Below, one piece after another: positions 4,252 to 46,300 of a stretch of 64,000 bases of DNA. The notes under the pieces were generated by a model. That model searched no databases and had not been told where the DNA came from. It saw only the letters and a list, made by a program, of their open reading frames with translations. Source of the stretch: Amoebophrya sp. A120 (Eukaryota; Protista; Dinoflagellata); assembly GCA_905178155.1 (NCBI GenBank), contig CAJINV010000009.1, positions 2,209,373 to 2,273,372 on the forward strand. The letters are read 5' to 3'. The position numbers were made by a program, and so were the translations under genes. Within the stretch, counting starts at the first letter, position 1. Every line of letters begins with the position of its first letter.

Positions 4252-7200
4252 TTATTCGTAGTTACCGTGGCCGCTGTTGACGACGACGCGGTTTCCCGGA
4301 GGTGCACCGACGTAGTACTGGTCTCGAGTTACACTGGTAGTTTCGGCTCCATGTCCATCTATCGTAGAAGTCGCTGCATGAAATTCCTGACCTGCGCCCT
4401 CACCTCCCGCAACGCGCATTTCGAACTCGATTTGAGAGGAGGGACTTCCACGAAAGGAACTTGTCCTGAATGACTGCCGCCCCGGACGATCTGTTAAAAA
4501 ACGGCCCCCGACGCTGCCACCCGGCGAAAACCCCGAATCGCTCTCGAAGTCTCCGTGCACACCATCAGGCGGCGGAAGATCGCGGGCAGGACCACGTGGT
4601 GGCCCAGCGGGTCCCCCACTGTAGTTGTTGTGAAGATTTCCACCACCAGCAGCACCTGTGCCCCCACCGCCCCCGTGGAAATCATGTAGCGATCGCCGGC
4701 CTCCGTAGTGGTCAGGAGCTCGATCAGAGTTTGATGTCGAGGAGTAGTGCAGCAGCATGTCGGGACAACGGTAGAGGCGCAGCAGACAGAAGTACAAGTC
4801 GTATTCGGCTTTCAAGTCCCCTAGACTGCGCGCCAGGTAGATTCCCGTGCAGATCTGCTCGAAGAACTCCGTATCTTCCATTTCCGTGTAGATCACACGC
4901 TCGCTGGACAGCTCGAACATCGCGCGAATCATTTTGAACGCCGCATACACGATCAAAGAGTAGAGGCCCAGGATGCTGAAAAAGGGCGTCGCGCTTGTGC
5001 TCTTGCTCTGTCCATAGGTCACGCCGCGCAGCACGCGCTCGGAAGTGGTTTCGAACGTTAGTGGCGGAATTAGGGCGAGGCGTCCGGAAGTCGGCGAAAT
5101 AACGGTGATGTCCACTTGGGAGACGGTTGACGCGGGCGTCGTTGGGACGCTTGTCAGACTTGGGAGATCGTCCGCTTCATCATCGTTGTCCTGTTCCCCT
5201 GGTCCTCCGGAGGTGTCGCCGATGACATCGGTCGAGGGAAGACGCGAAACGGGTGGGGGTCTTTGAGTTGGCAACAGCATACTTAGCTCCCAAAAGCTCT
5301 CTTGCGGACGATACTGAGACGCTGAACCAGGAGGAGCAGCCCCGGCACCGCGTTGTCCATTACGAGGGTTATCCGCTGGGTCAGCATTGTAGTCGACTTT
5401 CACTAGCCTCAAGGAAATGCCAGCTTTCCGACTCGCAGGAAGGTCTCTGTGGTCGTTGTACAACGGCCCACCTCTTGCTGCGGCACGACCGCCCTGGTGT
5501 CGTAGTCCCCCATGCCTGTATCTTCGCGCCTTGGCAAGTTGTGCGGCGGAGCCGCCGAATGGAGACAGAATCGGCGTCGCGTAACTTTCGGAGGTTAGAC
5601 GAAGATAGGGCGCGTACAAATCCGGCAATCGAATCTTTTTCGCACGGTTTGCGTCAGCACCACCCCCTGCAGGGGCTTGGTCGAAGTTTGCCAGGATCGC
5701 TTTTGCGACTCGCTCGAGCTTTTCGGAATCACGCTCAATTTTTACGTTCTTCGCATCTTCCAACTGACCAAGATTTGATACTGCAGCAACTCCGGTGTTC
5801 TCCTGGCCTCGGCCTCGCGCAGCACCATCATGATGAGCTCTGCCTCGCTGCTTGGTACTGGCAACAAGGCTTTTTTCATTGAAAAACCGCACCACTTTTG
5901 TCCCGTCGACGTCCGGAAGTTCGGTGTCAGGCACTGGGGCGCGCTCGAACACGTACTTCAAGTCGAACTGAATGTACAGCAGCTTACCCTTGTCGATGTT
6001 CTCCGCTTGTAGCATTTGCACGATCTCCGACCGGAGCCGCGGCGTGGCCGACCAAAGCTCGTCAGAGGCGTGTGGAAAGAGGATTCTCTGCTTCGTGTTG
6101 TATTCTTCGTCCTGGTCCTCTGTTCCATCTTCATGTCCGCCGGGGGGTGGCCGCGGGGGCTCATCCGCAGCGCCATGCTCTTCTGGTACTTCATCCTGTT
6201 CCTGATCAAAGCCCTGTACTGGCGTCGTAAAAATCTGTTCACTTTCTTCGTCCTTAAATTTCATGCTTGGCGAAACCGGAGTGCCTTGCTTCGACTGGTA
6301 GAGCACGACTTTCCGAATTTTCTCCCTACTCGCGACTGTGAGTAGCACCGACGCTTCTGCGGTTTGTACGCGCGTTGCCTCCGTGTTCGGGTTGATGGTG
6401 GAGAAGAGCAGCAGTGGCCCGATCATCAAAAAGAAAATCACGAGAAGGAGACATCCGCCGTTTGTGATTTTCTCGAACACGGACCTGGGTGGAGGCCCGG
6501 AAAAGCGCGGCCGTTTCGTCGCCGCGCTAGTACCCTTCCGCATGCCTTTACTGTTAGTGCGCGAAGATTTTGCACTGGAGCCTTTCCTACTTCGACGCTT
6601 CTTCACTATCCGTCGCTGATCGTTTTCAAGATGAATAGCGTCCTTGTCCTTCCCTAGTGCAGCAGCTGTTCCGTCGATTGATCTAGCAGCAGCGTCGCTG
6701 CCGTTCAAATTGCGGCCATGAAGATTATCTGCAGTCTCATCGCTTGGCTCCATGATCTCGCCTTCGTCGACGTCGCTCCCAGAACCACTTCCACCCTCGT
6801 CGTTTTCTTTGTTGTAGTGCTGTCGCCGCAACGTCATGTCGTACTTGACCAGGTACAGGTTTGTGAACAAGTCTTCCAACTTGAACCACATGTAGACGTC
6901 AAGCGATGTTTTTGTCACCACCTATCCCACGAAAATAACCCATCCCCATCGTAATTGCTATTTTTTTTGCAAAAAACGCTAAAAAAAATTGAAAAAAAAA
7001 CAAAAAATTTGCTACCCATGCGGAAGGGCTTCGTGGTGTTAGCTAGCACGTGACGACTATGACAGAAGCAGCCTGAGACGATTCATCTAGAAGTGTTTGC
7101 TTTGAATTAGCTAGCTCAAGGCATCCCCGGCGAAGCCGCGACAACAAAGCCACCGAAAGATGGGCGTCAGACAGGGAGACAGCGCCGGCTACGGATACGC

Positions 7201-10200
7201 TTTAGGGCCGTCAGGGCCGTTGGTTTGCTTGCTTTTTCCCACATCACCGTCGCCATGTCTGCTTGCCACCACATCGCGACCATAGATGAAAGCCCGTGAC
7301 CTGTTTTGTCCGTCGTTTTGGCCTCAATAGGTCGGCGAAAATTACCCATCCGGACAAATTTTTGCGACTTTTGAGCTTTTCGGATTTTTTCCGCAAATAT
7401 CTGTTCAAAAAACCGGAAAAAGTCAGATTTTTCTTTTTTTTGGCAAATTTCTTCAAAATTCCGAAAATGCAGAAAAATCTATCGCGATGGGTTATTTTCG
7501 CCGACCTGTATAGGCAAAAAAGCCTACTTTTTTCGAAAAGTGGTCCGGTTTTGATTTATCTGGATGGGTTATTTTCACCCGACCTGAGTCGGGCAAAAAG
7601 TTGCTCTTTTTTTGCTTCAAAGCCGGCTTTTTTGGGAAAAAAAAACTTGGGTTTTCGGGGTATACGGGTCGGCGAAAATAACCCATCCAGATGATTTGCA
7701 AAATTTCGCTATTTTACAAAACCCCAAAAAAGGCGAGCAAAAAGCGCGCGCCTGCCCCGACCTGAGTCCGTTGATTTGGCGATTTTTTTTCTTTCAAAAA
7801 AGGAAACACTCTGAGCGACATTTTAGCCGGACTCAGGTCGGGGCAGGCGCGAGCTTTTTGCTCGCCTTTTTTGGGTTTTTGAAAAGTCACGAAATTTTGC
7901 AAATCATCTGGATGGGTTATTTTCGCCGACCTGTATACCCCGAAAACCCCAGTTTTTTTTTTACAAAAAAGCCGGCTTTGAAGCAAAAAAAGAGCAACTT
8001 TTTGATTTTGCCCGACTCAGGTCGGGCGAAAATAACCCATCCAGATAAATCAAAATCGGGCCACTTTTCGAAAAAAGTAGGCTTTTTAGCCTATACAGGT
8101 CGGCGAAAATAACCCATCGTGATAGATTTTTGGTCGATTTTTGATTTTGGCGAAAAATTGGAATTTTTTTGAATTTCTTCGCTTGCGTCTGCCCTCAACC
8201 ATTTTTGCCGGACATCCATTTCTGGACAAGCCAGGTGACCAGTTGCGCGACCATTCCGTCGCCGCGGACGCGGCCTGATTAGGGGCCAGGGAGGCGGAGG
8301 ATAGGGCGGCCGCCCTTCCGGCGCGAAGCGGGCCTGTGCGGCCCTCCCGGAGGCCGCCGGCGCGCAGGACCTTCCGCGCCGCCACCGACCACGACCAGGA
8401 GCGCGGCCGCAGACCACGAGGAAGGGCCGCGCCCTCGGGACAGAGACATTGCTGGCGGTTCTTCCCTGAGGATGCCTGGAGCTAGCTACTTTATTCACAT
8501 CATCACTAGCGATTCCTCTCAAGCCGGCTGTTCTGACTAGTTATCACGAAGCTAGCTGACGCCACGACTTTTTTTTTCGCAAAAAAAAATCAGAAAAGTC
8601 GCATTTTTTTTTAGTTTTTTTGTTTATTTTAATTTATTTTTTTGCACCGTAAAAATGGCAATTACGATGGGGATGGGTTATTTTCGTGGGATACCACCCA
8701 GTCACACAGAACGCGAAACTCGTTCAAAAACGGAGTCACCATGTACAGCTGAAAGACGCACTTGCTGAACAGGTCCACCGACCGTGTCAACGAAATTGGT
8801 TCCGCGGTTTTCGTTGCGTACCGCAATTGTAGCGAAGAAAGAGCGAGATAAGTGGCGTAGATGAGGTACAAAGCTAGCAAAAAACCGAAGTTCGCCAAGC
8901 TTTTCAAGCACGGAGAGACGTGCTGCTGTCCGTACTCGCCCGTGTCAGTTGTGCCAGGAGCAGGACGACGCTGGTTCATTGGCTGCTGACCCTGTTGTCC
9001 TCCTTTCGTGGCCAGCCCCATCAGCAACCACTCCTGCTCATTTTGGTCTTGCTGAGCGCGCAAATCGAAGTACACGATCACCAGGAAGGTGTGGGCGACA
9101 GCCATTTGAGTCAAGAGGAGAAGCTTTTGCAAGATGACACGTATGCTCGGCTTGATATCAAGAGCTGCGGCTGCGCCTGCGCTGTCTATGTCTTCGTCGC
9201 GACGCTTTTCTACTTGTTCCTCGTGTGGAACGATCATAGTATTGCTGTTTTGTCTGACGACTCGCGGTTTGTTCCCGATCCCGTATCTGTAGTTGCACTC
9301 ATCTTCATGCATCTCCAACTGCACCGCTGCCGCTTTGCCTTTGGAAAAACTACTCCGGGCGGATCGAACTTCGTGTCCCGAGTTTTCTCGTGAACCACAC
9401 TCCTCCCGCGCTGGTGGTATGCGTCGCCTCCGGAGCCCCTCTTGCAAATGGCAGCTCCTTGGCGTCACCAGTCTCCTGTCCTCGTGGTCCACGACCGCCG
9501 GCGAGAACGACAAGTGTCCGCGATTGTCTCCGCCAGTGGGACATTCAGGCTGAACGACCGACCGAGGTGTTTGCTCTACTCCGCAGGATTTCCCTCTGTT
9601 CATCTTTCCATCATCTTCGTCTCGTCGTGCAAATTTGTTGTACTCGTAGATGCCCAGTGCTTTTGCCTTCTGCCGCAATATGCGCAACCGTTCTGCTGGT
9701 CCGTTCTCGAAAGCACCATCTTCCCGGCCGCGACGTCGCCCGTTGAAAGACGTTGCTGCGGCAAAGACCGTCTTGGTCGTTCTCCAGCTATGCAGCATGC
9801 GGTCCAGCACGGCAATTAAGAACAGGTACAGTAAAGTGAGCACTTGCTTCCCGGGAACTTGCTTGCCGTTCTGCACGATCGACCACAGCGTTTCCTCCGT
9901 CCCCACCATGCGATTCCAGCACAACAGAACGTACATGATGCACACTATGATTAACCACAGCCGGACCGCGTACAAGTTGCAAGCAGGTCGCGGCAGGTCC
10001 GTAAACAGGAGGTAGTAGAGGAAAGAAAGCCGACGAGTTCCGGCGGATGGGCTTTTCCTCGTAGAAGCACCAGAAGTTTGCTCTACTACCTGCCGACCAC
10101 AGCTAGTACGGGCGCTTCTACAACCAGTCCCCCCGTTCTCTTTGACGATTTCGTGGAACAGGTCGGGGAAGGAAATTTACGAGGCGGAAAAGTCCGCCCC

Positions 10201-13200
10201 AGCCCAATTTTCAAAAATTTCAATATGTGGCTTTAGTAGTCCCGGTTAGAGGAGACAATCGGGAACGCGACCAAGCCAGTGGTCGCTGAATGCGGGGACG
10301 CGCTTCGGGCGCTCCGCCTGCCTGGGCAGGGGCCAAGCGTCGCGCCGCGCCATATCCTTGCGCTCCTATTTGGCGAATGCGGATGGTGTGGCGCGCTTTT
10401 GGGCGCCGACTTTCCTGGCCGTCGTATATTTGTGCGTGAATGCTTCACAATGTTTTCCAGAAAAGTCCGCCCCAGGACGAACAAGGAGGCCGAATCTGGT
10501 ACCCGTCGACCCTGGGGCGGACTTTTCTAGATCGGGGTACTCAGGTCGGGATTGGCCTCTCCCAGAAAAGTCCGCCCCAGGCCGAACGGGCACTCCACCA
10601 AGTGGTCGGTCGGAGAGGGCAAAAGAGGCGAAAAAACATGACACGGGGGCCCCGAGCCTCTGGGGCACTATCATTAATTCAAGGCCAGTCCTGGACTGGC
10701 CCCATTTCACATTGCGCGCCGGGCGGGAAACTGCCTTTCCAAGCTGCGCGGGTTGGGGCGTACAAGTCGCCACGAAGTCAATAATGGGAGTCGATCTCGC
10801 GGAGAAGAATACCGAGACGCAGCAGCGACAAACGGGGCATGCTTTCCGTGCGAAAAGATCTCGCGCAATGAAATTTTTGAAAATTGGGCTGGGGCGGACT
10901 TTTCCGCTTCGTAAAATTAAGTCGACACCCATTTCTCTTTGCTGGCGGATGTGCAGACACAGGATCAACAGCGCAATGAATTCTGGCCACAAAAACTGAA
11001 ACACGGAGACGTCATCGCGCGGGACCTTGACCAGCCCCAGCCACAGCATCACCCGCGCACGGCGCTGCTGCGCCGCGTCGTCTTCGTGAGCGGGGGTGTG
11101 CAGAAAATAGGAACCGAGCAGATCCTCTTCGCCGGAATTATCCACCTGCTCGTCATCCGTATTCAGGGGAGATGGTACGACGTTATTTCCGCTCCGACCC
11201 GCGATTTTTCGTGGCAGTTCTTGCTGTGCGGCATTAAAGCCTGCAAACCGCGGACGTGCACCACGACGGCCCGGCGATGCAGCACCGAGGGCTGCGCGAC
11301 CTCCTCCGCGTTTGTTGGTCGTCCTCGCGGGGACGAAGACTTGGGCACTGAATTCCGGCACGAGTGCGTGTGGCCACCCAAGCTCTGCATCAAAGCACGG
11401 CATCTGGTAAAGTGCTCGCAGGATGATGGAAAACACGAGCACGAAGCGCACGCAGCGGTAGTACACCACGGGCGTGGTCGGGTAAAACATGAGTCCAACC
11501 AGGATTGCTGTGGTATGGAAGAGCGAGACGACTGTGGGTCCCGGGGCACCGCAAGATAAAAGCACCAACGCGCTGACCACCAGCCAAAACTGTGAGCAGC
11601 TGCAGAGAACGGCCTTGTACGTCAGTGAAAGAAGGTTATCGTCTCGCGCATGCGCAGGAAAAGGCTCACTGGCGCTGCGGACAAAGATCCGATCGTCCAT
11701 CAACTTATCACAAACGCGATGGATCAGACCACAGGACTTCTGCTTGCTTTGCCGATGTTGACCCACCTGATGATATTTTTGGGGAGGTTGAACGCCGGGG
11801 CTCGCGTTCTTTTGCTGGGCGCCATCAATCGCTGACCCGGCGTTTATTTCTCCGCCTGTGTCATGGTTCCGGCCCGGCTGTCCGACGGTAGAAGTACAAG
11901 AAGCAGGTAGATTCTTTTGCGCCTCTGCAGCTGATTCTCGTGCCTCGTTCTCTGGTGTCGGGGCGGGCGGAGGCGGAGCCACTCCTGCTGTGTACAGCAA
12001 TTCTTCTGGTTTCCAAATGTGGAAGCCGCCGTCTGAAGCTGAAGCAGCCGCCGCCAAGCCCGACGCTTCGCTGCTATTCACCTCGGCGCCCGACGCCGAC
12101 CCCGACGGTGCTACCGGTCGCGCCGGTGATGTCAGAGCAACATGACCCGGACCGCCCCCATCAGCAGCTCCGTTGTAGTTTGGGCTTTTCTCACGCTCAC
12201 CAGATGGCGATAGCGGTAGATTCGAGGGACGCCGTGATGAAATGCGACGGCCTCCCAACGTTTCTCGAGACCAAGTGCGAGTTCTTGTAGACCCCCTCCG
12301 CGCTCCTGAGTGACTGCCCGCAACCCGGTCAGCCAGCGACTGCAAGAGCCGTTCCTGCTCGGCGACCATGTCCTCGTCTGAAAGCAAACACCGCCGCCGG
12401 GCGAGAATGGTTTTCAAAAAGCGCAGTGCAAAAGCTTCAATCATATCTGCGTCCAGATAGAACCGAAGCAGAATTTCCGGATCGAGCTGCCGGCTGCTGC
12501 CTTCACAAGTCCATCCTCTGTTGATTTGTTCTTCTACATCTTCCACGGGCTCTCCTGGTCCACGGCCTGGCTCCCTAGAAAATAGCGCGCCTTCTCCGAC
12601 GCCACAAAGCACTGTTCTACCGACACCAATTTCGTGCATGTCGATGTGGATGTTGGGTACAGGAAGACTCATTTCTTGTAACTGACGCTCTCGTCGCACA
12701 GAGTGCTGCAGAAGTAGCTCCAAAACGCGCGCAACGACGTTTAGCTCCAAGCCGGTTGCGAGGCCTAGTCTCTCCACGCGACTTACAAGCGTGTCTTCCC
12801 GGTGCTGGTCCACAAAATCAGCGGTCATACTCGGATGCACTCCGGCCACCCGGCGACCTTCCAGCCAGAAATTCTCCAACTGCCAAATCAATCGCTGATA
12901 CCGTCGCATACGGTGGTTCAGAATCTCGTGCTTGGTTTCCACCTCCTGTAGCTCGCAAACGCGCCACGCTTGCACACTCCAGGAAAACCGGTCTTGCCGG
13001 ACTAGTTGCACCAGTCCTGCTTGCACCTCTTGCGCTCTCAATTGCCTTGACCGTAGTTTGCGCTTCACCGCGAGCACCGACAAGTGGAAAAAGCAGATGA
13101 GAAACGCCACCATCGGCCAAAACACCGTGGGCGGGATAGCGACCAGCCACGCACCGTAGCTGGTGCGTGAGCTGCGCTTGTAGAACCCGAGCGCAAACAG

Positions 13201-16200
13201 AACCCCCTGCCACGTCTCCTGCTGCAGGAAGGTTCCCTTCTCGTCCGGTCGCACAACCGTCTGAAACAGACCGTGGCTGTGCTTCTCGTCCTGCGTCACG
13301 GAAATCGACTGAACCAGCGCGCCCTGATGCTCCACACACCGCTCTCGCTGCAGCCACGGCGTATATACCGTAGGATTAGCTGCGGAGCTGCCCGCGGTGC
13401 TGCGACGATTCCTGTGCTTATCTCTATCGACCGCTGCGGATACCGGGCACGGCGCCCATGGACTCTGGTACAGCTGCTGACAAATCAACAACAAGAAGGA
13501 GAAAAGCGCTGCCGCCTGCAGAATACGCTCCAATTTCAGCCGACCTTGCACGGTTTTACTTTTCCCGCTGCAAAAGTCACCCGCCTCCTGCTGTGCTGGC
13601 TCATAAAATGCCATCGACCCAAGCCGCAGAAAGACGACAAGCAGCACTGTGTAAATGAACATGGTGAAGTCGTAGACGCTTGGCCGGCTGATGAGACACT
13701 GCGGCAACAATCCCAGAAACAATGTCACTGCGTAAAACCAACCCCATTTTTTTCGCGATGGAGGAGCGTGATCTTCTTCACGACCACTACGCTGCAGATC
13801 CGACGTCTTCGTCTTCGCGGATGAAAAATTGTTGTTCTCGGAGTCTTTTACTCGTTCCGCCCCTGCCATCATGCGTGCTGACACGGAGTCAGGACTCAGC
13901 AGGACGCAGCAGAAAAAGAGGAATGCGCACAGCTCCGTGAAGTGCCCGTAACTCTGCAGATCCACGCGCAAGTTGAGCCAGGCGAACCAATCCTCACCAC
14001 ACGCTTTTCTTCGATCTTTTCCCTTGTAATTGTGACACAGACTTTCGACTTCGGCAAGCCATGCAGCGTCCGGCCGGTCAACGGTCCACCACTTCTTGCT
14101 ACCCGAATTGGCAGTAGCCTGTGGCGACTGCGGGTTATTCATCTGTATGCGTGTAGTAGCATCGCCCGCCGTGAAAGAATTCGTTGTCGCCGCTCCCGGC
14201 AACCACAGCGCCCAAAAGTACTGCGCAACCAAGGAAAGAAAAAGCACCCAGGCATAGATAGCGACTAGCGTCCGAGGATTTTGGTGAAGCGCGGAAAAAA
14301 TGCCCGCAGGTCTTGGAGGAAAAGACGATGACTGTAGTTTATTAGCCCTTCTATTCCCGTCACGATCGGCATGGGAAGACGCGTAGACGTTTGTTGAGCA
14401 GTCGCCATTTGAGTTTGACGGCAGACCCACATCCGCGTATCGGAATGTTCCGCCGCGGTCTCCTTCGCAGGACTCAGCCCTTCCTGCGTCTTTACGCGAG
14501 GGCGCCTCTACTTTGCAACTCCGCCGCGCTCTGCGCCGTAAATCCACATCTCTGTTCCAATCGAGGTGGGGGTCATCGATTATATCATCGATCTCCATTC
14601 CCATTGTTCGTCCGTTCAAAGCAGGGATTGATGTTTGTGGCGATGCTGTTTTTTCTCTTGCTTCATCTTCATCCGCACGCTGAATCAGTGCCCACGATGC
14701 CTCTTCATCCTCGTCCGATGAAGTCAGCAGGAGAGGCAACTCATTCTCGGTTTCTTCTGTTTCCTTCATCGGAGACGAAAAATCAGCTTCCTCCATGCCT
14801 CTTGTTCTCTCCTCAGAAACCTCCGCGGCACGGCCGCCGGCGCCGCCGGTATGATGATATAATTCCGTATTGATCAGTTTTTCGTCTTGATGTTGTTCTT
14901 CTTCATCTTGTTGACGACGCGCCGCGATCAGCTCTTGATTATCCGCAGCCTCTTTCCAGACGGTACACAAACCGAGCAACACGAAAAGCCCGTACCAGAG
15001 CGACAGAAAGTTGTCGCGGCTTACTGCGGTGACGAACAGAACAGCCACCGCCAGCTCGAGCCGAAACGTGCCCAGTACATGCCGAAAAATTTTGAAAACA
15101 GCATGGTAGAACCCAAAGCACGCGTCGGCGTCTGTTCTTGTAGTCGCTACTGATTTCGTTTCACGTTGTTCCTCTACTTCGTTCGACGCCTCTGCTACGC
15201 CGGTCGGGGTTGGAGCTGTACGAAACCCTGCCACTTGTTGTTGTTGCTCTCCGTCTTCACGACCCCGCTCGTTGGGAGGTGCAGGATGATGTGCTGGTCT
15301 ATCTACACACGAACCAGTTCGCGTGAGGACGGCGGTGTCCGCTCGGCTGTCCCTGTTGTCCGCTTCAATGTGAGCCTCGGTCTCGCGGCCCAACACCCGC
15401 CGGCAAGACGAGGCCGCTCGTGGTGCAAAAAATTCGGACTCGTCAACTCCTTCTCCTTGTTCTTCTGAAAAACCGGTCGGGCGCTCGTGCAGTTGCGAAG
15501 TAGAAGAACCAGCCAAGTTATACAGACTGTCCCGATCCTCCATCGCGGGGGAAACCCGCGAAGGCGTCGATTTCGTAGTGGCCATCCTCGCGCCTCCTGC
15601 GAACGCAAACGTGGGTCGGTCCGTCGCGCGGCGCATTCTTGCAAATTCCATACCGCCCCTGTCGCGGGGATTTCCAGACGAGTCTTGAGAGTTTATTTGT
15701 GACTGCGATGTCGAGCTACGACTGTCTCTCTCAGGAGGAGGAAAGAGCAAGTCGCTGTACTCCTGCTCTCGGTCGTTAGCAAGAGCAGCTTCAGGGGCGA
15801 CGGCACTCTCCGGCGCTCGACGCTGCAGAAGAGGGAAGCTCGCAGATCTTCTTGAATTCTTATTGTTTGCGTAGTCACCAGCGACCAGGTCGTCGTCTCC
15901 AAGCATCGGAGTACTACTTCGCCCGCCCTCTACTTGACAAAGACTCTGCTGCTGGTCATGTCGTGCTGTCCCCGCCAAAATCATACTACCAGGTGCCGCA
16001 AATCCAGTTTCTGCGGCTGTATCATGTGCACGACCATCAACCTGGTGCAACCCCCCAGCAGCGTTGCTGTAATTACAGTCGCAGTCCGCTCTTCCGCCAT
16101 CGAAACTGTCCAACTTTCCCTTCGTTTCCCACTGTTGCAGCTGCCGCGCTGCGATGAGAAATGAATACTGCTGCAAGGAACACAGAAACAGCATAATCAA

Positions 16201-29743: not shown

Positions 29744-30882
29744 ATCTTCACAAAGAAATGGAATAAATATATGCTCCGTGCAGACAGAATGGGAGGCACA
29801 GACTAGCAGAAGAGAAATGTATTGTAGCGAAAGGACGAATCAAAATGATAATGAACTCACTGTCAACATACCTGCTCCCGAAATCTTCAGAAGCAAACAG
29901 ATGACGAGAAGGCAGCAACGACTACGTCGACTGGTACCTACTGCACGAAAATTATGTACTTACTTACATCATGTCCACGAAGTACACGACACCATTTAGA
30001 TTAAGCCTGAAATGTACATGGACAATTTGTATTTGCGCAGTCTTTTTCTTTGTTTTCAACGTACAGAAAAATGTTTATGTTTTAGTTTTTAGAGATCATA
30101 ACAAACTGAAACTACGTTGAAGTTGAACAAGCTACTAGCTGATGCTGAGTAGAAGGAGCCTACTCCAGCTGCTGCAAGCTTGACGTCATTCACTTTGTCA
30201 TCGTTACATCGTCGACGTCATTTTTGTCAAACTCAGCAACGAACTATCTCCACCTATGTATAACATGAGAAACTGCACATCCTGCGTTGTATATGCATCT
30301 TCATCGCCCTAGCCCGGGTCTACTTGTACATGAACATGACCATCAGCAACAATTCGGCTCTAGAAGTTGAAATGAGAAGCTCTTTGGCTCCTTCGGTGCC
30401 GGTTTCTTATATGAAAAATGCAAGCTCCTTCCTGTGCGAGAGGCGGCGTGTAGTGCTAAATATTCGTCCAATGATTGAAGGAACGAATCTTATCCTGTGC
30501 CTGTGCACAAGCTATTGCTATGTTGAGTCCGAAGCTCCCTTTTAGCTCCCGAAAAAAAAATGGAATAGCAAATTCTTGGAAAATGCTGCATGATGTTGAC
30601 TTATGACTTTTCATTTCAACATGAAGATGAGCATGAGGTCGACCTCATATCTAAAATTGTCAAAATCAACGAGGGTTGCCCCCGCTCCCGCTCCGCGCAG
30701 CCAAAAATAGATCACTGCGCTGAGTCAAAAACGAGACCTACGGCGATACACACAGATGATAGCGAAGTGTCATCTTCGGTAGAGTACTGGTGCTGCAGCT
30801 CCTAGGGTAGAGCACTAGATGTGTGCTGCCCGGAGCAAGTGTCGCCCAGGTCCTCCTCCTCCTCACTCCTCCAGGCGACAGC

Positions 30883-36800: not shown

Positions 36801-37986
36801 CTCCGGATTCGCAACTCCGTGGAACAGAGTTCGCATGTGGCACTCTCCGTATGCCCAAACCTCTGCCTGCCACATCTTCAAGAGACGCAACTCGCGGGCC
36901 TGCATCTGCAGGTCGTGTCGCAACATGAACATCTTGCTCGACTGTTCCTGCTTTGCTCGTGATCGGAATTGCTGGAGTGGAAAGTAGCACATGCTCGTGC
37001 ACTGCACCACCGGAAATAGAATTAGAGCGCCCGGCTTCATTCCTCGTCAAGCCAGAAACCTCTTCTTGCAGTCGCACGACTTGCTCAGCTGCAGCACCGT
37101 GCGCCGCTGCGTGAATGAGCATCGGTCGTAGTTCCGGCAACGCTCCATCCGAGGCAGCTTCCCCAGAATACGTGTATGCTGGTCCGGACGCGGAGTAGAG
37201 CGTCGTCTCTTCCTGGCTTTTTACGGCCATGGCAGGAGTCGAAAGTTGACCTTCTTCTCCAAGTGGTCCAGGATAATGTTGCAAATAGAACGCGGCATCG
37301 GTTTCCGCACTTGCACCCGAAGGCCCGCCCCCCGTAAGCGATGAAGTTGTGTTTCTGGCATGTAGTACCAACTCTCGCAAGCGTTCCGCGATGGGGTCAG
37401 GCACGTCACGCATCTGGCCACTTGAGGAAGTCGTGGTGGAGGAGTTTTCGTTAACTACAGCCGGATCAACAACACCTCCACGCAAAGACGTCGCATCTTC
37501 AGCTGCGCTCCCTGCTCCTCCACTTCCCCCTGCACTCCCACTCGAGCCACCATACCTCGCTCCTTCGACTTCACGATCCTCTTCCTGAAGATCGGTTTCA
37601 TTTTTCGCCGGCCCAGAAGTACTAGAGAGGTCCACCTCACTAGCAGCTTCTTGGTCTTGCGACACGACAGGCGGAGGCGCGTAATCGTGCTCAAGTCCTC
37701 GCTGTGCTTCATCTTGTTGTTCCGCGCTTTCAGTGGCGGTCCGATATGTTCGCGACGCTGCATTTTCCACTTCATCCGACAGAGGCAACGGGGTGTCCAA
37801 TAGTCCAGTGCCGATTCGTTCCGTTTCGTCAACGAACGCGGCACCAGTGCTACGCTCCATTGAGCCCGCATACGTCGAAGTAGCACGCGGGTCTTCCCCG
37901 CTCGTGTGCGAAGCGGTAGAGGGATAAACTCCTGCCGCGGCTACTCCGCCTCTTGTCGCGGCTCCGAATACAAGAAAAAATTTCAT
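30883..37986 (-). CDS. Large hypothetical signal-peptide + internal TM protein (~2,367 aa), intronless, paralog of 23985-29743 gene
   Basis: Uninterrupted 7.1-kb ORF. MKFFLVFGAATRGGVAAAG signal-like N-terminus, internal TM CGLVSLGFANLALVLGILFS, and conserved blocks shared with the neighbour (FWKELFPISDLQSFF, PYLHFLDSVPW, PKPDLVLSFLGTNFG, LYPLL). Confidence 0.88.
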   Translation of the reverse strand: MKFFLVFGAATRGGVAAAGVYPSTASHTSGEDPRATSTYAGSMERSTGAAFVDETERIGTGLLDTPLPLSDEVENAASRTYRTATESAEQQDEAQRGLEHDYAPPPVVSQDQEAASEVDLSSTSGPAKNETDLQEEDREVEGARYGGSSGSAGGSGGAGSAAEDATSLRGGVVDPAVVNENSSTTTSSSGQMRDVPDPIAERLRELVLHARNTTSSLTGGGPSGASAETDAAFYLQHYPGPLGEEGQLSTPAMAVKSQEETTLYSASGPAYTYSGEAASDGALPELRPMLIHAAAHGAAAEQVVRLQEEVSGLTRNEAGRSNSISGGAVHEHVLLSTPAIPITSKAGTVEQDVHVATRPADAGPRVASLEDVAGRGLGIRRVPHANSVPRSCESGEREQTWTSGGIEEGHDDDQHRDRRKGSILQSMTLREQCEDPAELRHVDSLRDPSTSAGGDTTGSSFRRRREELEEEDNDQVFHGQEDGGVVEEDVEGATTTQESAASTAEVSPQVEGENPDPVMNRNAAPLEYDLHELHDGHDGAPYNYDEHQHHRYSVGGWIDRFWTFLISPDASQGQTQVYEQVLPDEVGVQSAPFHFGRRQGAQRHRRTTRGVDLETGTDGFLADEQQPRDARAVAPRGMPTTPDREASRLRVSPEQTPEQVDPPRSSPFLSRGQVSQDDDNPRPQPTRRGNSRPIPGTRMMDDSARVAAGSSSSASQELHSPALADHEGNVETALLDLRHMSRPGGSGASSAATPPREGDDESMLAFEQMQNGERRAILDAVYYNSSMLQLHDGEDAPLQPPLPEARSLAGTSPGNNREHTTCLSATKKCGLVSLGFANLALVLGILFSNQLPATPADKVGQVVPYQDRNNSENRSESMQTTGSGSELSGDGPRGPGSRRGPRGRRPAAHQAPAGLDEKSSPIWTVFYSSLALDVPGSPPSSNDIRHPQEARYRAFWKELFPISDLQSFFATVAARSMQRRVRLENSDEESSARSGGDGFEESGRRDAARTLRSPTFPTTKIPSRVGKDRAENAASSAGHDQLGAGEEMSVRRLLRTSPAAQRRPQQLPPESDHFDTELTASVNFNEVMHKNSSEVSSSVKPDAPASSTTTSSPSSSSTSTRARRAAASTSSTTLASTPNRPGTTSVATPSGDEQGASAEWYAKMRKRAHEVWDQERIDAYREASEAPYLHFLDSVPWRQQQCGPFPPLPETDWTAELRPLWLEKVRTAWSVLDQIQFGEEDVDWWIRDPDNLKRKVQVHLKPAKMGKGMHGVFPPGTVSPLPENQRIADMERRRYYDEAERFRLTVQAQQRRREDLRALAEGLHNEVDAIEDVGTSGDSRGSSKKDQHGEEGMKSEELPREHRDRTVRNQSRQWSEEDARQRITSTASPGVGNDAGNPNYHLTGEENKSGSNKVDAAQHLEQSDKEMVDSARELQKREIRQTEERFFDRLFSSSIFRDAGGHSEDERRKLVSSTSREDGDGASSAPEPRIVGVRKVVNRGNGGRSLLDWTLRRGLLLDRKSIRQSSNLPSRPLEDCVLGHEKNESHQHTSPKPDLVLSFLGTNFGADRVLLRLAQDGKTPSQVWNQSTPSFLDVWDEAAEGCESARRTEARAADDANSSKLRMQIEAERATPLLKLAKEGPSPPRASESPTKSEEVLQERSRQNCVKNLKDEVAREVSGLYPLLVSELTRAFLYDSKAAVALFAWELQQAQQMVATLMIAEREAKLGPFLVESPPVPTLQDLKIWKVDLTGFVLTQQRNYIQRAGTASWMQRMAKQRVFPDPEQEGSLEADRDTEGSSHGQDKMMEVASYFSLPVYLEPRQAFEEAAAVLGLIPRPNQSQNIFIGTRSMEVVGAHGGLQVVPDFSPEDDEDEELKEETGGAGSSESNLVSGISKWKRSEQELRKNPKTSLVDQLFFSKKMSRRIFDKTHYKQALRDQQDLRDEESDWVDDSETRTSAAPDTTTRSYRTTSDYKKAIEAAEKSQLLAFAIEVSFYADTWWCDPTERQMLHTHTFAVVKKPRNKKIKPEQERTSAAAAGDEDSKNEDGLDLGGTGDEAGWSGPPGMMMNTTSTTTSLVPESPEAAEFLIFHAADFDMMRTSFGEEGGKASFRASRDDEQNPDQGQDQLQHHDEHCVNHATASGARLGSSSSSTHHEGEKRERNEGIPRYFLQQELFRVKQKPQFRLVSKAVLEQLLDPEMLIYIDEDLDEFEYNLTTGEMKFEGAKRAPLRAQEEKSPLLEMQPSLGMLRDFETEQLCMYKLNSLSLQNLPLKPHQGTGISEDVAPAPSIQQQQIFGGTSNLEAANPLDVCAEAQGDLNRWKELWNDFVFHGLLPESTLAKPGFGIPVLRSIYQLDGTNPRPDLFEDSL

Positions 37987-39493
37987 TTTCAAAAGAAAAC
38001 GAAGATAGAAAAACTATAGTAGTGATGAAAGAATTTTACGGATAAGAAGTTAGGTGAAAAGAAAAGCGCCACCGCACCGTCATCACGACGTGTGACGATG
38101 ATACTGTTACCCAGTAAAGGGTTCACAAGAGTGAGATTTTAGTTATGGGGTTCCGCAACAACACATATCAAATGAAAAAGCTAACTGGAACGGGAGGAAA
38201 AACAGGGGTATTAATAGGAATGGCTCAAATCTGTTTTTCCTTGATGTCTATTTTTGTGCAGCATCCCAATCTCAATCTTAACAACATGAACATACTAGAT
38301 CCTCTTTCTCATCTTCGACTACACACATTATATACAGATAGAGTTGACCTCATCAAGTTAACATACAACATGCTGACCACGAACCAGCAATGGATCTTTA
38401 CTTTTTACCTTCCGCAGCTAAGAAAAAGGCCGGATCTTGGTACGCTAGCTCCTGTTTCGTCTTCAATATGATCGTTTGTCGTCTTCGAAAACGTAACTAA
38501 CACGAAGGGATCGAAATGCTGAACGAATGCTGATGAATCACTACAGCAAACTAGCACCAGAAGAATACTTCGAAGGATCTGATGGGTTGATGTAGTGCCG
38601 CTCTTGCAAATTGCACACCAGATACTGGCGCTGCTATTTTTGCTGATCGTAATACAGCCGAAATTGTGATGTTTTACAGTGAGACCTTCGAAGATAGAGC
38701 ACCAGAATAGAGTTTGTTAGAGCCTCACGAGGAAAGAACAAAACCAGGTTTATCTTTATTGATCCTCATCTGCAGATGCACGGTCACCTGCGATCGTGAA
38801 TGTGATTGGCTCGAGATAGTTACTTTCGAGTACTTTTGCGGTCGAGGTCATGCTATTGCGATGATGTCGATAGATCGAGATATTTACTTTTGGGGTGGGT
38901 ACTTGATATCCATATCTGCCACATCATGTGGGTGTGAGCAGCCTTCTTGTTAGCGTGTCGCGTCGATGTTCAGCTTCTGCGTGTGCCTTGTGCTGTGAGT
39001 GAGAAGATGCAGCACGCGCTCAACTCGCATATACATGCATTACGACTTCTCCAAAACCACGAATACCATGGGTTCTAGGATTGCGATTTTTCATTTTTAT
39101 TTTTATTGTGCCGTCTCTTTTATAGTTCCGATCACCTTGTGGTGATGATGGAAGTCGATCTTCGGATCATCTACTTTAGTAGTAGCAGAGAACGGCATGT
39201 GAATGTAAATCGTGGTCGAAACTACTTAAGATCTATCTTCGTCGAGCTTCATTAAAGTCAAAACACTTGACGCGTCGCCGTCCTGGGTCATAATTTCGCA
39301 GTAAAAAGTTGTAAGTTACAGGGGTGATGAAGAGGGTAGGGGTACGAGCACGAGAAAGAAAAATGGAATACAGGTCGCTTTGAAATTTCTGTGGCTGGCG
39401 TGACGCCTCCAGTCATGGTCGCGAACAAAAAAAAAACCACACCACCGCAACCGGCCACTCTCTCAAAACCAACACAGGAGCTTGCTCCAGCCT

Positions 39494-41775
39494 CTACACA
39501 CGTCCACCTAAGGACAGCTGGCTGTCGCCGCTTTCCCAGCTTGCAACACTGCTGACGCTGTCCCGGGTCTCCCCAGATTTGATCCCGGCGCGGGATCGGC
39601 CTCCGTGGGTGGAGCTAGTCGGGTGCAGGTTCGATATTCCCGCAGTCGTGGTTACTTCGGGGTTTACTTTGTTGCTCTTGCCAGCGCGTCCGATCGGAGT
39701 TTTTGTGCCCCCAGCCGAAAAATCGTCATCGTCGTCCACAGCGGACGCCTTCCCCGGGTAATCTTCCCGCAACCATTTGCGCCAGCGGCGCTTGACCTTT
39801 GCCTTCCCGACGGTGGCAAACAAAATGCAGCTGCCGGTAGCGACGAAAACGCCGAGCAGGTGTGGGAGCCAGACCGCCGTGTTGTCGTAGAAAAAGTACC
39901 CGACGATCGTCCAAATGATGCAACCGGCGAGACCTGCGATCGCCATCTCCGGAGCGCCGAGAGGGCCGACGTCCCGGGAAAAGTACACGTTGGGAAAGTG
40001 CAGAGCCGGGGAGCACACCTGGTCGCGTTCAGTTTATTTGAATGCCTATTGACATCGAACTACAGGAAAAGGAAGAGGAAGAAGAACTAGAACTCTACGG
40101 CGCATCATATGAAAAACAATTCAATTACGAGCGCAGGACTCACGTTGTTGTTGAAATTTCAACGCGGCAATTCTACAATGAACTCAAAGCGCATCTTTAT
40201 CGAAAAACACTATACCAAAACGAGCATAACCGCCGATGCCAGGCTGGCCAGTGATTCGATGCTGAAGAAGAAAGCGCTGATGAGCCCCAGGACGAACAGC
40301 AATCCTATGATCTGCAATTGCTGGTTAAAGAGCGCCCGCTTTTCCAAATCCTTCTGACAATTCTTGTAGAAGGTGAAGACGTAGAAGCTGTTAAACGACA
40401 GACCGGAGGTGTTGGACAGGATCAGAATCGGCTCGAAAATCAGGATGGTGTACAGCAGCCAAAGGGAATTACAGCTCATTGCAGATGTGAAGGGTGTCGG
40501 GGAAAGCGTCAGCACTGTGCCGTCTCTCTTCACCTGGAGCATTCGCTGCATCGGCGCGAGCTGGCACGCGATATTTATGACCAGACCGAGCCTCTCCAGC
40601 AACATTTGGACAAAGATCCCAGAGGAGGTCTGCACGACTTCAATGTGTGTTTTCTTCGTCTCGAGGACCAACTGCTGCTCCGTGCCGTCACTGTTGATTA
40701 CCGCTTGGTTCTGATTCAGGTGCACGATCTTCCCATCCTTCGTCTGTACTGCAACAACCTCCTTCATCGGGTCGGCTTTTTTCGCCACCTTTACTCCTTT
40801 GTGGTGCTGTGAGGCTGTTGAAGCTGATGAACTAGTCGGCGCGGCGTGGGACGAAACGGGCGTACTGCCACCGCTCCTTGCGGTGTTATCTCCGCCATCC
40901 GGGGTTCCCGGAGAGGACTCTTGCTCAACCATAATTTTCACTTTTTTTTCTGTCGGCGCACCCGCATCGCCACTTTTAGACGCGGGTTTTGAAGAAGCAT
41001 AGCCAAGCGGACCTTTTGCTGTCGCGTCCTGTTGACTCGGACGGAGTTCGCGGGTGTGGACAGCCGTTCCGGGTTGCACGACAGCGGGCGTGCGCGTGGT
41101 AGAAGGGCCGACAGGGGTTGCACTACTAGCCGCAGGTGTTGTTGACGCCGTGTTTGATGTCGAAGCAGGCGGTACAACGACTTCCGCTGTTTCTCCTGTC
41201 GGCTTGCTAGTACTGTGGTTAGTGCTCTGTGAATTCTCTTGCAACAGAAGAACTGGTGGCTTTTCGTCAGTTTTCGATGACTGCGAAATCTCGTCGTGCT
41301 TGTCTTGACTTCTCGAGGAGGTTGAAGAAGAGGAGCTCGTCGACGATGCATGATAATCCCCATCCTTCGAGAAGTTCGTCGTCTCATCTTCTGCATGCCT
41401 CGCACCCGAGGTGGACCGCTCTTGTTCTATTACACTCTTTGCTCCAGCATCCTCCTTGATACCTGTTTCTTCTCTTTCATCACCTACACTCACAGTCGAC
41501 GGGGGAATCGGCCAGCTACTTTCATGATCCACAGCTGGAGCGTTGGAGGTCGCATCTGGTGGTGCTGCCGTTGAACTGGAAAGTTGATCTGTTGAGTCAT
41601 GCGCACCCGTACTGCTCGGCGTCGGCTCTGTTCCGTTTTCATTTCTTTTGGTTGACGACGCTAAAAACTGCCGACCTGGAGTAACCTGCTCTGGTAATGC
41701 TGCATCCTCGGAGTCAACAAATCCGACACGCAAAATGACCAGCGTGGCAAAAAGAGTGCCGCGAAAGGAGATCAT
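39494..41775 (-). CDS. SWEET (MtN3/saliva) family sugar transporter with signal peptide and long S/T-rich N-terminal extension, ~694 aa, 2 exons (41775-40216, 40018-39494)
   Basis: Two MtN3 repeats: LGLVINIACQLAPMQRMLQVKRDGTVLTLSPTPFTSAMSCNSLWLLY...ILSNTSG and LVCSPALHFPNVYFSRDVGPLGAPEMAIAGLAGCIIWTIVG...VWLPHLLG. Joined in frame by GT-AG intron 40019-40215. Confidence 0.85.
40019..40215 (-). other. Conventional GT-AG intron (197 bp) in SWEET gene
   Basis: TTG|gtatag...gaccag|GTG, phase 0, restores the second MtN3 repeat. Confidence 0.8.
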
Positions 41776-43305
41776 CGCGCGTGCCTGCACGTAGCTCGCC
41801 AGATAGGCCGCCGGTCCTCGGAAGCTTAACTCCAAGAGCAGCTCCAGCTGGAAAGAGCTGGAGTTGAAAATGATACACCGACGATAACAAGGACCATCTT
41901 CAACTACTTACTTATTTGTGAAAGAATTCTTTTGCGCCTTTCGACTTTATCATGTTGTCCAAATTTCTACAACAGACAATACTTCTATCCGACGCAGATT
42001 CAGGCTCGCGATCTGCTTTTAAAAATGAGAAAAACAAAAATCAGCTTAAAATAAAGTCAAACACTCTTGGCAAACTCCAATGCTGTAGAGGAAACACTGA
42101 AAACAATCATAAAAATGCCTGCGGAGAACAAATGAAGATACGAGGATAGATATGGCGGCAGTATGGACGTGGTTTGTTATGTCATTGAGAAACAGACACC
42201 GACACAAAGATCTGTGTTTTACCAAGAGCGTAGATCGTAGTAGTAGAACAACCGAATCCACCGCGTTCCGTATCCGTGCTCAACAACTAATTCTTCAGCA
42301 TTAACATTTTTACGTACTCCAGAGCTAGATCTTTCTCTTCGTCGCTGTCAACAAAAATTTACGCAACAATTCCAAATTATTTTATTCTGATCGGATCATT
42401 TTATTTTTCCTGATCATGGGCTCTGCTCCTAAGCTTCCTTGCAGTGAGATCATGCGAATAGCCGATTTTGTTTTTGACTCCATCTACATACGCAATATAG
42501 GCTTGTCTCAACCAGACCGCCGGACAGCTGCCAGCAGCACCTGTTGCGCGATGTCCGAGGGGTGGATGAAAAGTATCCGCAGAAATCGAAGAGTTTTTAG
42601 TCTTCTTCTATCTTGAATGCAGGTCGCTCGTTGCAGAATTTCGCGATCAGGACTGCAGTAAAGACAGCGGTATGACTTCAATGCTCCACGGAACATTTGC
42701 TGACAGTCTGTGAACAGGCATCCGAGTGCATTTTGCAGCTGTCTGACTCCCTGTCCCTCTCTCTTAGCAGCTCCCGGTTGCGTCATAGATTCATTTTCAA
42801 GCTGTACTTAATGTGCGCAGGACTCGCTCCATAAAGCCCCTTCCTGTCTTTGCCCATTCACCAATCGTGGTCTCGATGTTGTTTCTATTTGTACAATCAT
42901 GCAGTCAACATGCTAACAAACTCAGTGCGCACCAGACAGGAAATCATATAATTGGACAGAAACTTGCTTTGATATGTAAGGATTTAGTAAGGATAGAAGT
43001 TGTACCAAGTGCAAAAACAGTAACAAAAAAGAAACAGTAAGAGTAACAGAAACTCGCGTCGCACACAAACACACATATTTAAAAAACGAAAAGTTGCTTT
43101 GATATGGAAGGATTTGATATACTGAAGTCTATTTTGTCCAAGTTATTCCCGGTCTGGCTGTACTCTCTTTTCATTTGTTTTTTCTTTATAAAATATCTTC
43201 ACCCCGCTGCTGCAAGCATCATACATTGACCAAAATCCGGAACGTGGCTCTGGGGCCGGACTACGAGTGGTCCGCGTGAAACCTTTAAACAGCATCTAAC
43301 TTTCT

Positions 43306-46300
43306 TTACTTCGCTTTGCGCGTCTGCAAGAAGCCGCTGAGCGTGCCCATGTCGTTCTCCTCTGCGTCTTTGGAGTGGGTCTCCAGAATCTGCAGGGCAT
43401 CCTTCAACGACGCAATCTCCTCCTCGCGGCGCTTTTTGCGGGCTTCGAACTGGTCTCCGGCGTTGACGCAGGCCTCTTGCCGGGCCTTTAAAATTTCCTT
43501 GGCGGTCTCGAGCGCACCCTTCTTGGTTGACTGCTGCTCCTGGTACTTCTCCAGGTTGACCTTCTCGGTGTCAATCTCGCCGGTCAACCGCTCGATCTCC
43601 TTCTCGCACTCCGCGATGTCCTTTTCCATGGTTTCCTTGCGCTCCTGGTTCTTGTACTGCTCAGACTCGTAGTTTTTGTCACCGTCCACAATCACACCGT
43701 CGCACCCGATGTTCTCGCCCTTCCGGGTCTCGAAGCTGTCCTCCGCGACGCAGCCAGACTGTTTATTTTCATTCTCTGTGCATTGCGCGGAGTTGAATTA
43801 GCATAATTCCTGCAGCTCCAAATGCAAACACCAAATCGCCTCCCACATTTTTCTTCTATACATTAACTCAAAACTACGAATCAACGTCCCAGTTTCGAAA
43901 ATCTAATTTTAAACTCTCTTCTACCTCCATCTTGGCCTGATCCGCGGCCCAGGAGTAGTCCGACTCGATCCCGGTGAGCAGGTCGATCACGGATCCGCCG
44001 GACGTGGTGCGCTGACTGCTGAAGTCGCCGGTCGCGCTCTCGCCGTAGATTTCCTTCAGGAACCCGATGGCCTCCTGCAAAGCAGCTTCCCCGGAAACCT
44101 TTTCTTCCAAGAGATCCTTGTAGTAGCTGTCCTTCTCACCCATGAGCTTCTCTAAGGCTGCGAGGTCGGTCTCGAGCGTCTCTTTTTCTGTCGTCTCCTC
44201 GTTGAATTCGGTGTTGAGCTTGACCAGCAAGGCTTCGGTGTCCTTGACCAGCGTGACCGCGGCCTGGTGGTCCGTGTCGGCATCGTCAGAGGCGCCCTTC
44301 ATCTTCTGCAGGCTCTGCGCGCACCAGTCGGACTTCGAGGTCTCCGCGTCCTGTTCGTCTTCCAGCCGGGTAACCATGGTCTCGATCAGGTTCCGAACGG
44401 ATTTAAAGTAGTCCGGCTTGGAAACCTGCAAGTTCATCTGCAGAGCGACGGAGGAAAGGCGAGAGCCTGATGATATTTGAATGATTGGCTATGATTTTGC
44501 AATTCCAAAACATAGCGCAAATGAACCCATGCCAGAAGGCCAAACTAGCTCCACCGATCTCCGACAGCGGGTCTACGGCTCTTCTACGGAGAGTTTTCAT
44601 CACATATAGCTGGTTTATTTATGCGCGTTCTAAATCGTCGCGTCACAACTGCACTGGTAAACAAAAACAAGGCGAGTACAAGCTTCTTCGATAGTCTTAA
44701 AACTATCTGGCGAGCCAGGTAAAAAAAACAATAGTACTGTGCAAAACCGCGGCGGACGAGGCGATGCTCTTCAGGACGTTGGCAACCCGCTGACGCAACT
44801 CCTTGTCGTCCGAGCCCAGCTGCAAGAAACTCTCGCCGGCCGGCGCCGGGACCTTCTGCAACGCTGCAATAGCGCCGGTCAACCCGGAGATCTCGGCGGT
44901 CAACAGCTTTGTGCTCGCGTCGTACGCGACCGCGGCTTTTTGGCACGTTTCGGTCGTCTCGGCCACGCCCTTCTTGGCGGTTGTGCGAATTTCCTTCTCG
45001 TCCACCAGGGCGGACTGCGTCTCCCCCAACTTTCCCTTGGTGTCCGACAACTCGGCCTCGAGCTTCTCGGAAGCGGCGATGGAAAGATCTAATATGGCGC
45101 TCTCAAACGTTACATTCTCAACTGTTACACGATTTGTCATGCAAAATTGCCTTCAGAATCGACAGCATCAAGCTGCTACGCCTGACAAATTATCAGAGGG
45201 CCAAACAGGCTGATAATCGGTGCCAAGTCTGTCATGCAAGACGCGCAAGATTCCCCCTATCACTTTTGCCATTCATTCTTGCATCGCAAACTCATGTAAC
45301 AGTTGAGAATGTAACAGTTGAGAACGCCATATCTAAAAAGCCCTGGTTGGAAGAAATTGCCTCCTCCAAGTCGTGGATCTTCGCCTGACATTCATCCTCG
45401 CCCTGCTGAATCTCGGTTTTCCTGTCGAAAGCGTGCTTTCGCAGCTTCGTCACCATGGTAACGACGGCTTTGCTGCTCGAGTTATCAAATGCAAAAATGT
45501 CTGGGTCTGGAAGAGTCATGCTGTTTTTGCATGACAAAGAAGGGCTGGCATGGAGGCTCTAGCATCACAGGTTTCGACAAGCGTTCACAATGCCGAATCC
45601 GCATGACAAATCACCCCTTTTGGTGACAGAAAGTGGAAACTTTTGCTGCCTTTGCATGAGAGATTTTTTTGTGCTCTGTAATGCGCATTACAAGTTTGTA
45701 TCTCCAGACCCAGACATTTTTGCATTTGATACGAGTCCTGCATCAGGGTCAGAACCTTGTCGCACGCCGCCATCATGGCATATGAAAGCCTCAGAATGGA
45801 AATCCTCAAAGTGGAAATGATTTGTGATGCATGAAATGCGACGCAAAATAGACTGTATTGCCGAGAACGCAATGGAGGCTGACTATTGTCCTGCTAGGGG
45901 TCAAGAATTGGAGTGCTGCTTAGCACGACAGAAGGGCCCCCCCTTGCCTTAAGCTGCATGACAGACACGCTTTAAGTGCCCGGGAAATTTGTCATGCGCC
46001 GACTATAAATGGCGCTCCAACTGGAGTCGTTTTTTTGCATTACAAATTATTTTCACTTTGAGGATTTCCAACCTGAGGCTTTCATATGGCATCCAGCTTG
46101 CGGACGCGCTCCTCGCATTCCTGCTTAGTGGTGTCCAGAAGGGTGGTGTCACCACCTGGTGGTTTTTGTTTGTTGTATCACTATCAATCCTTGTTCCGTT
46201 TATCCGAGCCACTTTTAAAAATGATTCCTGCACGCATATTTTTCTACACACAGACGACAAGCAGCGGTAGTGCTAGGAAGCGAAAAAGTGGGATTCCAAA

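Follow-up and report, generated by a model that had tools for sequence, protein, structure and literature searches.

Tens of thousands of introns in Amoebophrya, a marine parasite, are removed without GT-AG boundaries, and the mechanism by which they are removed and spread is the question addressed here. The window, i.e. the whole stretch of 64,000 nt of Amoebophrya sp. A120 DNA that was analysed, contains eight elements with terminal inverted repeats (TIRs), labelled E1–E8, which interrupt three host genes and are flanked by 5-bp target site duplications (TSDs). The explanation considered probable is that non-coding elements with TAY..RTA ends lie in exons, are spliced out via their base-paired ends, and are spread by an integrase-type (IS3EU/GingerRoot-like) transposase.

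Eight elements and their removal from RNA

The elements, none of which is assigned to a strand, are the following:

6923–8693: E1, 1771 bp, TAT..ATA, TSD CCACC at 6918–6922 and 8694–8698; intron in the Piezo gene
10178–10913: E2, 736 bp, TAC..GTA, TSD AAATT; intron in the Piezo gene
26287–26548: E3, 262 bp, TSD TCCCG; most abundant TIR class
26602–26844: E4, 243 bp, TSD CATCC; TIR class that of E1
27043–28210: E5, 1168 bp, TAC..GTA, TSD ATTTT; central hairpin
45093–45331: E6, 239 bp, TSD TCTAA
45483–45731: E7, 249 bp, TSD CGAGT; TIR class that of E3
45781–46086: E8, 306 bp, TSD TGGCA

They are carried by three genes, one of which also has ordinary introns:

4252–21849, minus strand: Piezo-family gene (Piezo_cap, THU9/anchor), host of E1 and E2; its 5' end is undefined
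23985–29839, minus strand: orphan host gene, a stop-to-stop frame of 1387 codons after removal, carrying E3–E5
43306–46948, minus strand: coiled-coil host gene, A120 model P0005 (700 aa), A25 orthologue P0006, carrying E6–E8
43759–43924, 44467–44737 and 46156–46362, minus strand: three ordinary GT-AG introns of the coiled-coil gene

Eleven sequencing runs were listed, of which X3–X6 represent one sample and are RNA by guess. Joints were read from contigs on window positions 26190–46189, a region that covers E3–E8 and has E1 and E2 outside it. The X3–X6 contigs included nine joints, three of them at the ordinary GT-AG introns and six at the elements. X1 contigs run unbroken through the same three GT-AG introns, and X3–X6 were therefore treated as RNA and X1 as DNA. 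The six joints at the elements are:

RNA joint at E3: 267 nt skipped, 4/4 runs
RNA joint at E4: 248 nt skipped, 4/4 runs
RNA joint at E5: 1173 nt skipped, nothing between, 3/4 runs
RNA joint at E6: 244 nt skipped, 4/4 runs
RNA joint at E7: 254 nt skipped, 4/4 runs
RNA joint at E8: 311 nt skipped, 4/4 runs

At all six elements the skipped length equals the element plus 5 nt, and no alternative joint at E3–E8 was present among the joints listed. The original prediction, made before any transcript was consulted, had expected junctions lacking the element and exactly one TSD, which is what the contigs show; nearby GT-AG sites were not used in place of the TSD register at any of the six.

Removal of each element together with one repeat leaves open frames in all three genes, as had been predicted. 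Also the predicted effects of retention were confirmed, E4, E6, E7 and E8 each causing a frameshift and E1, E2, E3 and E5 an in-frame stop inside the element. Removal lengths of +2 and +8 preserve the frame as well, and frame restoration alone can thus not fix the length. The length is fixed at +5 by the RNA joints together with gapless alignments to orthologues: for E6–E8, +5 is the one length that adds no gap to the alignment with the A25 orthologue, and for E1 it is the one length that leaves the junction free of gaps in the alignment with the orthologue P0004, the coverage of which does not include E2. The public models P0003 (E1 and E2) and P0005 (E6–E8) already drop these elements as element+5, the P0003 protein being identical to that translation at both of its elements.

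The coordinates and the exact 5-bp direct repeats agreed with the original prediction for all eight elements. Each is closed by the reverse complement of its start, and the arms of the inverted repeats (IRs) are 29–91 nt long, with an indel near the terminus in E5. A scan for TAY..RTA ends, an exact 5-bp repeat and a TIR match yielded exactly E1–E8 in the window; in the control the scan gave 461 matches in real sequence of at least 3 kb and two in shuffled sequence. Six TIR classes were counted among the eight elements, E3 and E7 sharing one and E1 and E4 another, and the predicted "at least six" types were thus about right. Folding gave stable stems at the ends of E4 and of E7 (z = -7.0 for E7). 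Central palindromes are present in the three long elements (window positions 7316–8160 in E1, 10460–10593 in E2 and 27529–27723 in E5), those of E1 and E2 containing additional copies of the TIR core motif in a foldback-like architecture.

One TIR pattern was used to collect 140 overlapping loci (842 kb), chosen for containing elements; all 76 loci listed were from assembly JACKZZ01, and none of the 140 is orthologous to the window. E3, E4, E6, E7 and E8 had blastn matches at many sites in these loci, relatives of E3 reaching 95% identity, and a copy of E8 at an unrelated site is 90% identical. E1, E2 and E5 had no blastn match in the 140 loci, diverged contigs do align on E5, and tblastx among the three found no mutual similarity. 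An Rfam search of the window gave no match.

Three open reading frames (ORFs) of the window are 100% identical to Amoebophrya sp. A120 records, and two have A25 orthologues. The genome is thus the one in which introner elements were described, and E1–E8 are already-described transposon-derived introns (introner elements) of Amoebophrya: their TIRs start with TAT (6/8; TAC in 2/8), 5-bp repeats border all eight, removal is non-canonical in 6/6, and copies occur at unrelated sites. The protein identity and the published features together support the link to Amoebophrya introners that had been drawn from the sequence alone.

The prediction had allowed removal from RNA or from DNA. The six joints uphold the former, and excision at the DNA level, in a somatic copy that is transcribed, is considered very improbable. 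Such excision would agree with the exactness of the removal and with the one repeat copy that stays; contigs also drop rare variants, and 225 further joints exist beyond those listed. However, X1, with even coverage of ~45 including the ordinary introns, has contigs that cross the boundary between exon and element without any difference at four junctions (E4-right, E5-left, E5-right and E6-left; depth 43–48). This evidence is weak, as of these four junctions only E5-right exceeds the 31-letter bridging rule, as the 225 further joints exist, and as X1 may be the source of the assembly. The internally eliminated sequences of ciliates are excised from DNA with one TA left. They were rejected as a model for E1–E8, since in the RNA joints both TA ends are lost and the 5-bp repeat is left behind, and since the element ends persist, on the same weak evidence, in the DNA-like run.

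A comparably slight probability is given to the view that the joints are template switches of reverse transcriptase across hairpin and direct repeats, the mRNA keeping the elements and the ribosomes hopping over them. Such skipping is known to be marked by a hairpin combined with a direct repeat; furthermore, the 5-bp repeat always contains one in-frame codon, and the library method of X3–X6 is not on record. However, RNA is usually fragmented before reverse transcription, and the interiors would then be sequenced. The 1.1-kb interior of E5 had zero depth (bin 27524–28190) in 4/4 RNA runs, in three of which contigs join across it, and non-exon depth around E7 and E8 (bin 45533–46189) was at most 1–9% of the spliced depth; both observations argue against skipping as well as hopping.

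In the raw RNA runs X9 and X10 the reads matched only relatives of the elements (90–95%) and no exon, and these runs are therefore uninformative on this locus. In X9, which is from another strain, ends related to E3 (26462–26550) and E8 (45781–45842) were joined to single flanks by ~80–120 reads each, and some element copies may be retained in transcripts of that strain. Section 20 of the genome paper (PMC7789003) describes only DNA libraries.

Choice of the cut positions

When no termini were presupposed, an exact 5-bp repeat was present at 238 of the 1080 TA-ended IR pairs of the loci and the window, versus 24 of the 21758 pairs with other ends; a 6-bp repeat was present at five of the 1080. 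Altogether 403 unique elements were found in 12 TIR classes of at least two members, and the 5-bp/TAY rule holds across these classes (~400 elements), although TAY..RTA at 806/806 ends is built into the scan and not independent. Among 416 end-anchored elements the 5-bp repeat was perfect in 334, had one mismatch in 58, two mismatches in 10 and more in 14. No 6-bp repeat was found among the imperfect ones, nor in any of the 29 elements of a smaller set.

An ORF heuristic allowed the host strand to be assigned in 176 of the 403 elements (seven from the window). In these, no TSD position departs from the exon background (p 0.09–0.72). GT-AG boundaries were available in any register in 10 of the 176, compared with 8.5 ± 2.8 at shifted sites, which is the chance level and unlike canonical U2 introns with their GT/GC-AG boundaries; within the window they are possible in E1 only (1/8). 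G[TCA]-AG was found in 18 of 176 (23.6 ± 4.6 at shifted sites), and the antisense reading gave two GT-AG and eight G[TCA]-AG. Families occur in both orientations about equally (23/24, 16/9, 11/8, 10/8, 9/6, 7/7 and 3/3), the nearest relative shares the orientation in 68 cases and has the opposite one in 89, and the two TIR arms are equally conserved. A subterminal TNAC-like motif was rejected as a branch point, as it is strand-symmetric with no sense-strand excess (27 vs 34).

One- or two-mismatch duplications are present in 68 of the 416 elements. In the frame-called elements among the 68, 31 of 53 mismatches between the TSD copies lie at codon position 3 (p = 2e-4) and 28 of 53 are synonymous, where 35–43% would be expected with one of the copies unconstrained (p 0.007–0.11), which hints that both copies reach mRNA, i.e. 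at a sliding register. With register 1 the 3' end would read UA-N, and with register 4 the 5' end would read N-UAU; the two together would remove the element plus 2 nt, which is excluded by the RNA.

The absence of base bias in the TSD, the chance-level GT-AG, the occurrence of both orientations and the persisting mismatches together make the paired ends of the element, and not normal splice signals, the likely guide of the cut. At least one of the two junctions is unreadable by sequence, which likewise points to the paired ends as setting the cuts. With good likelihood the exon ends would be brought together by the stem of the TIRs or by a factor that binds this stem, the two cuts being made at fixed distances that total 5 nt outside the stem; cuts placed in this way would make any insertion site neutral.

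The catalyst is a more even matter. A modified host spliceosome (U2/U5/U6), with the stem replacing U1 recognition, is preferred at about an even chance, because A120 is reported to possess a nearly complete spliceosome, with U1 snRNA undetected (PMC7789003). The main rival is a dedicated non-spliceosomal endonuclease/ligase which, as proposed for Euglena, would measure from the TIR stem and join the exons without a lariat. It would suit the irrelevance of orientation and the fact that no register has fixed letters at both junctions, and the Euglena code makes use of paired motifs that are separated from the cuts by spacers of set length (PMC12501133). However, the reported A120 spliceosome does splice the adjacent GT-AG introns, and a UA-N 3' end or an N-UAU 5' end each resembles half a spliceosomal signal, so that such an enzyme is regarded as possible but not probable. 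Somewhat more doubtful still is a second, sequence-blind and non-spliceosomal splicing machine, convergent with that of Euglena, which would recognise any TAY..RTA hairpin in either orientation, cut 5 nt outside it, rejoin the exons, and thereby hide a 5-bp-TSD branch of IS3EU/GingerRoot from genes.

The Euglena nonconventional introns (PMC12501133) resemble the present ones in being TIR/MITE-like, in lacking GT-AG, in being cut at fixed spacers from paired ends and in occurring beside ordinary introns. The likeness is in geometry only: the lineage is unrelated, and the code N3CDG..CHGN5-6 with a purine at the exon start was not found here, where the ends are TAY..RTA and the TSD positions show no purine bias. 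The non-canonical introns of Fritillaria borealis (PMC11282704), reported to be spliceosomal, share the TIR and TSD as well as a 3' end of A-N, but have a fixed 5' end (AG) and a biased target (TAC), neither of which is seen here.

Several points weigh against removal guided by the paired ends and carried out by a modified spliceosome. The RNA support consists of contigs of one guessed RNA sample, five of the six joints are flagged "between: not known", and the joints cover E3–E8 and not E1 and E2. The strand is known for only the heuristically called elements, and the bias statistics come mostly (169/176) from the related assembly without RNA. The 10 sense versus two antisense GT-AG weakly suggest that canonical sites are sometimes used. 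Furthermore, neither a lariat nor a circle was seen, nor a branch point, the latter being judged from the subterminal motif, and Markov scoring and the homology of mismatched TSDs did not yield the cut register.

A subterminal motif, GCAT[GTC]ACAA, occurs on both strands in different TIR classes, mostly 40–54 nt from the ends. It is present within 70 nt of an end in 113 of 176 elements; in the window it occurs in E3, E4, E6, E7 and E8 and is absent from E1, E2 and E5. It is possibly a shared site of a transposase or a splicing factor.

Identity of the mobilising enzyme

The TA..TA termini of the elements match those of IS3EU/GingerRoot transposons (TAYGG..CCRTA in fungal IS3EU), which also have TIRs of >30 bp and a TSD without nucleotide preference (PMC10045372, PMC6839031, PMC12730594). 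A DDE enzyme of this kind with a 5-bp stagger is proposed as the mobiliser, with as much chance of being right as wrong. Against it, the TSD of IS3EU/GingerRoot is usually 6 bp in the same sources (0/416 here, where it is 5 bp), and Pfam detected no transposase or integrase in 103 ORFs (99 locus ORFs picked from 245 by composition, and four from the window), a search that covered a small share of the genome, i.e. the window and the loci. Nor did Farhat et al. 2021 (PMC7789003) report a transposase in A120. In the original prediction, TA termini plus a 5-bp TSD could not be assigned to a named DNA transposon superfamily; the termini have a named counterpart in IS3EU/GingerRoot, although its TSD is usually 6 bp.

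The alternative that the mobiliser is a transposase of the hAT5 type, or else an integrase supplied by LTR retrotransposons resident in the genome, is entertained tentatively. Both kinds make 5-bp TSDs (LTR elements mostly), as found here, the A120 introner fam3 rows include rve and RVT_2 domain hits (PMC12130899), and the lack of a reported A120 DNA transposase favours it as well. However, TA ends stand out in the terminus-unbiased IR-pair count and match IS3EU. No description of hAT5 termini was found in the literature searched, and the elements are filed under neither IS3EU/GingerRoot nor hAT5. Ginger2/TDD, which has TG..CA termini and a 4–5-bp TSD, was rejected, as only one of 2111 TG-ended pairs had a 5-bp repeat.

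Three long TIR pairs in the loci were considered as autonomous elements and discarded, since they overlap shorter elements and their scanned ORFs had no transposase match. The TIR patterns had no matches in viral contigs or prokaryote genomes. A single transposase clade mobilising all families would fit the 12 TIR classes seen in the sequences; the A120 family fam65, which is Mutator-like with GG/CC ends and an 8–9-bp TSD, counts against it (PMC12130899).

Gaps between neighbouring elements peak at 40–80 bp (82/296), only 10 being <40 bp, and in these element-selected loci the distance from one start to the next has its peak at about 325 bp. These patterns suggest insertion beside existing elements or chromatin phasing.

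Earlier descriptions, surrounding genes and significance

Removal from RNA, 5-bp repeats and TAT ends are already in print, and the system is a known one in its type genome. Farhat et al. 2021 (PMC7789003) described A120 introner elements with IRs starting TAT-N7-AAA, direct repeats of 3–5 nt at the borders (5 bp in the legend of Fig. S19), RNA-seq-supported non-canonical introns and the idea of a hairpin, the splicing mechanism being given as unknown. The genome, the TAT starts, the border repeats and the non-canonical removal are thus the same. In contrast to the 3–5-nt repeats, 8–20-nt IRs, variable splice positions and ruled-out mobilisation by a transposase in that paper, a constant 5-bp TSD outside 29–91-nt TIRs was found here, and blindness to target and orientation was measured. 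In Gozashti et al. 2025 (PMC12130899, sd07.xlsx row 580) the A120 family fam38 is listed as Ginger with a 5-bp TSD and TA/TA ends, and its ORF similarity is LTR-element-like; it is one family of 810 bp with five copies, a length that no window element has. Among 56 of the 58 A120 rows, 54 are assigned to the superfamily "Unknown", and their automatic TSD calls vary. The novelty claimed in the original prediction was accordingly overstated. The general 5-bp/TAY rule, the blindness to target and orientation, and the IS3EU link were not found in the literature on introners and Amoebophrya splicing, a search with subscription journals and figure images outside its scope (further cited: PMC9860276, PMC3517528).

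Upstream of E2 the Piezo frame runs for 3827 codons without a stop (10366–21849, minus strand), but P0003 comprises no more than the final 1544 aa; the gene product may be ~5,000 aa long and the gene under-annotated. The orphan gene at 23985–29839, its translation searched in three pieces, had no Pfam match. The long ORFs of the window are all on the minus strand, and those without interruption are:

30883–38013, minus strand: 2376-codon orphan
40210–41907, minus strand: SWEET/MtN3 transporter
52453–61542, minus strand: 3029-codon tubulin-tyrosine-ligase-family protein

In the related assembly, the essential genes for the RNA polymerase II largest subunit and a SNF2 helicase (loci L046 and L011) lie amid several elements, some with mismatched duplications.

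The value of the results is a sharper, testable rule for the splicing and mobilisation of known elements. The strict rule, with TAY..RTA ends, exactly 5 nt extra, blindness to target and orientation and persisting mismatches, leads to concrete tests: elements whose duplications differ can reveal, in RNA-seq data already available, the register in which the cut is truly made, and the search for the transposase can be directed at the clade indicated by the termini. If the second splicing machine were real, an entire 5-bp-TSD branch of the IS3EU/GingerRoot transposons would be invisible to genes.

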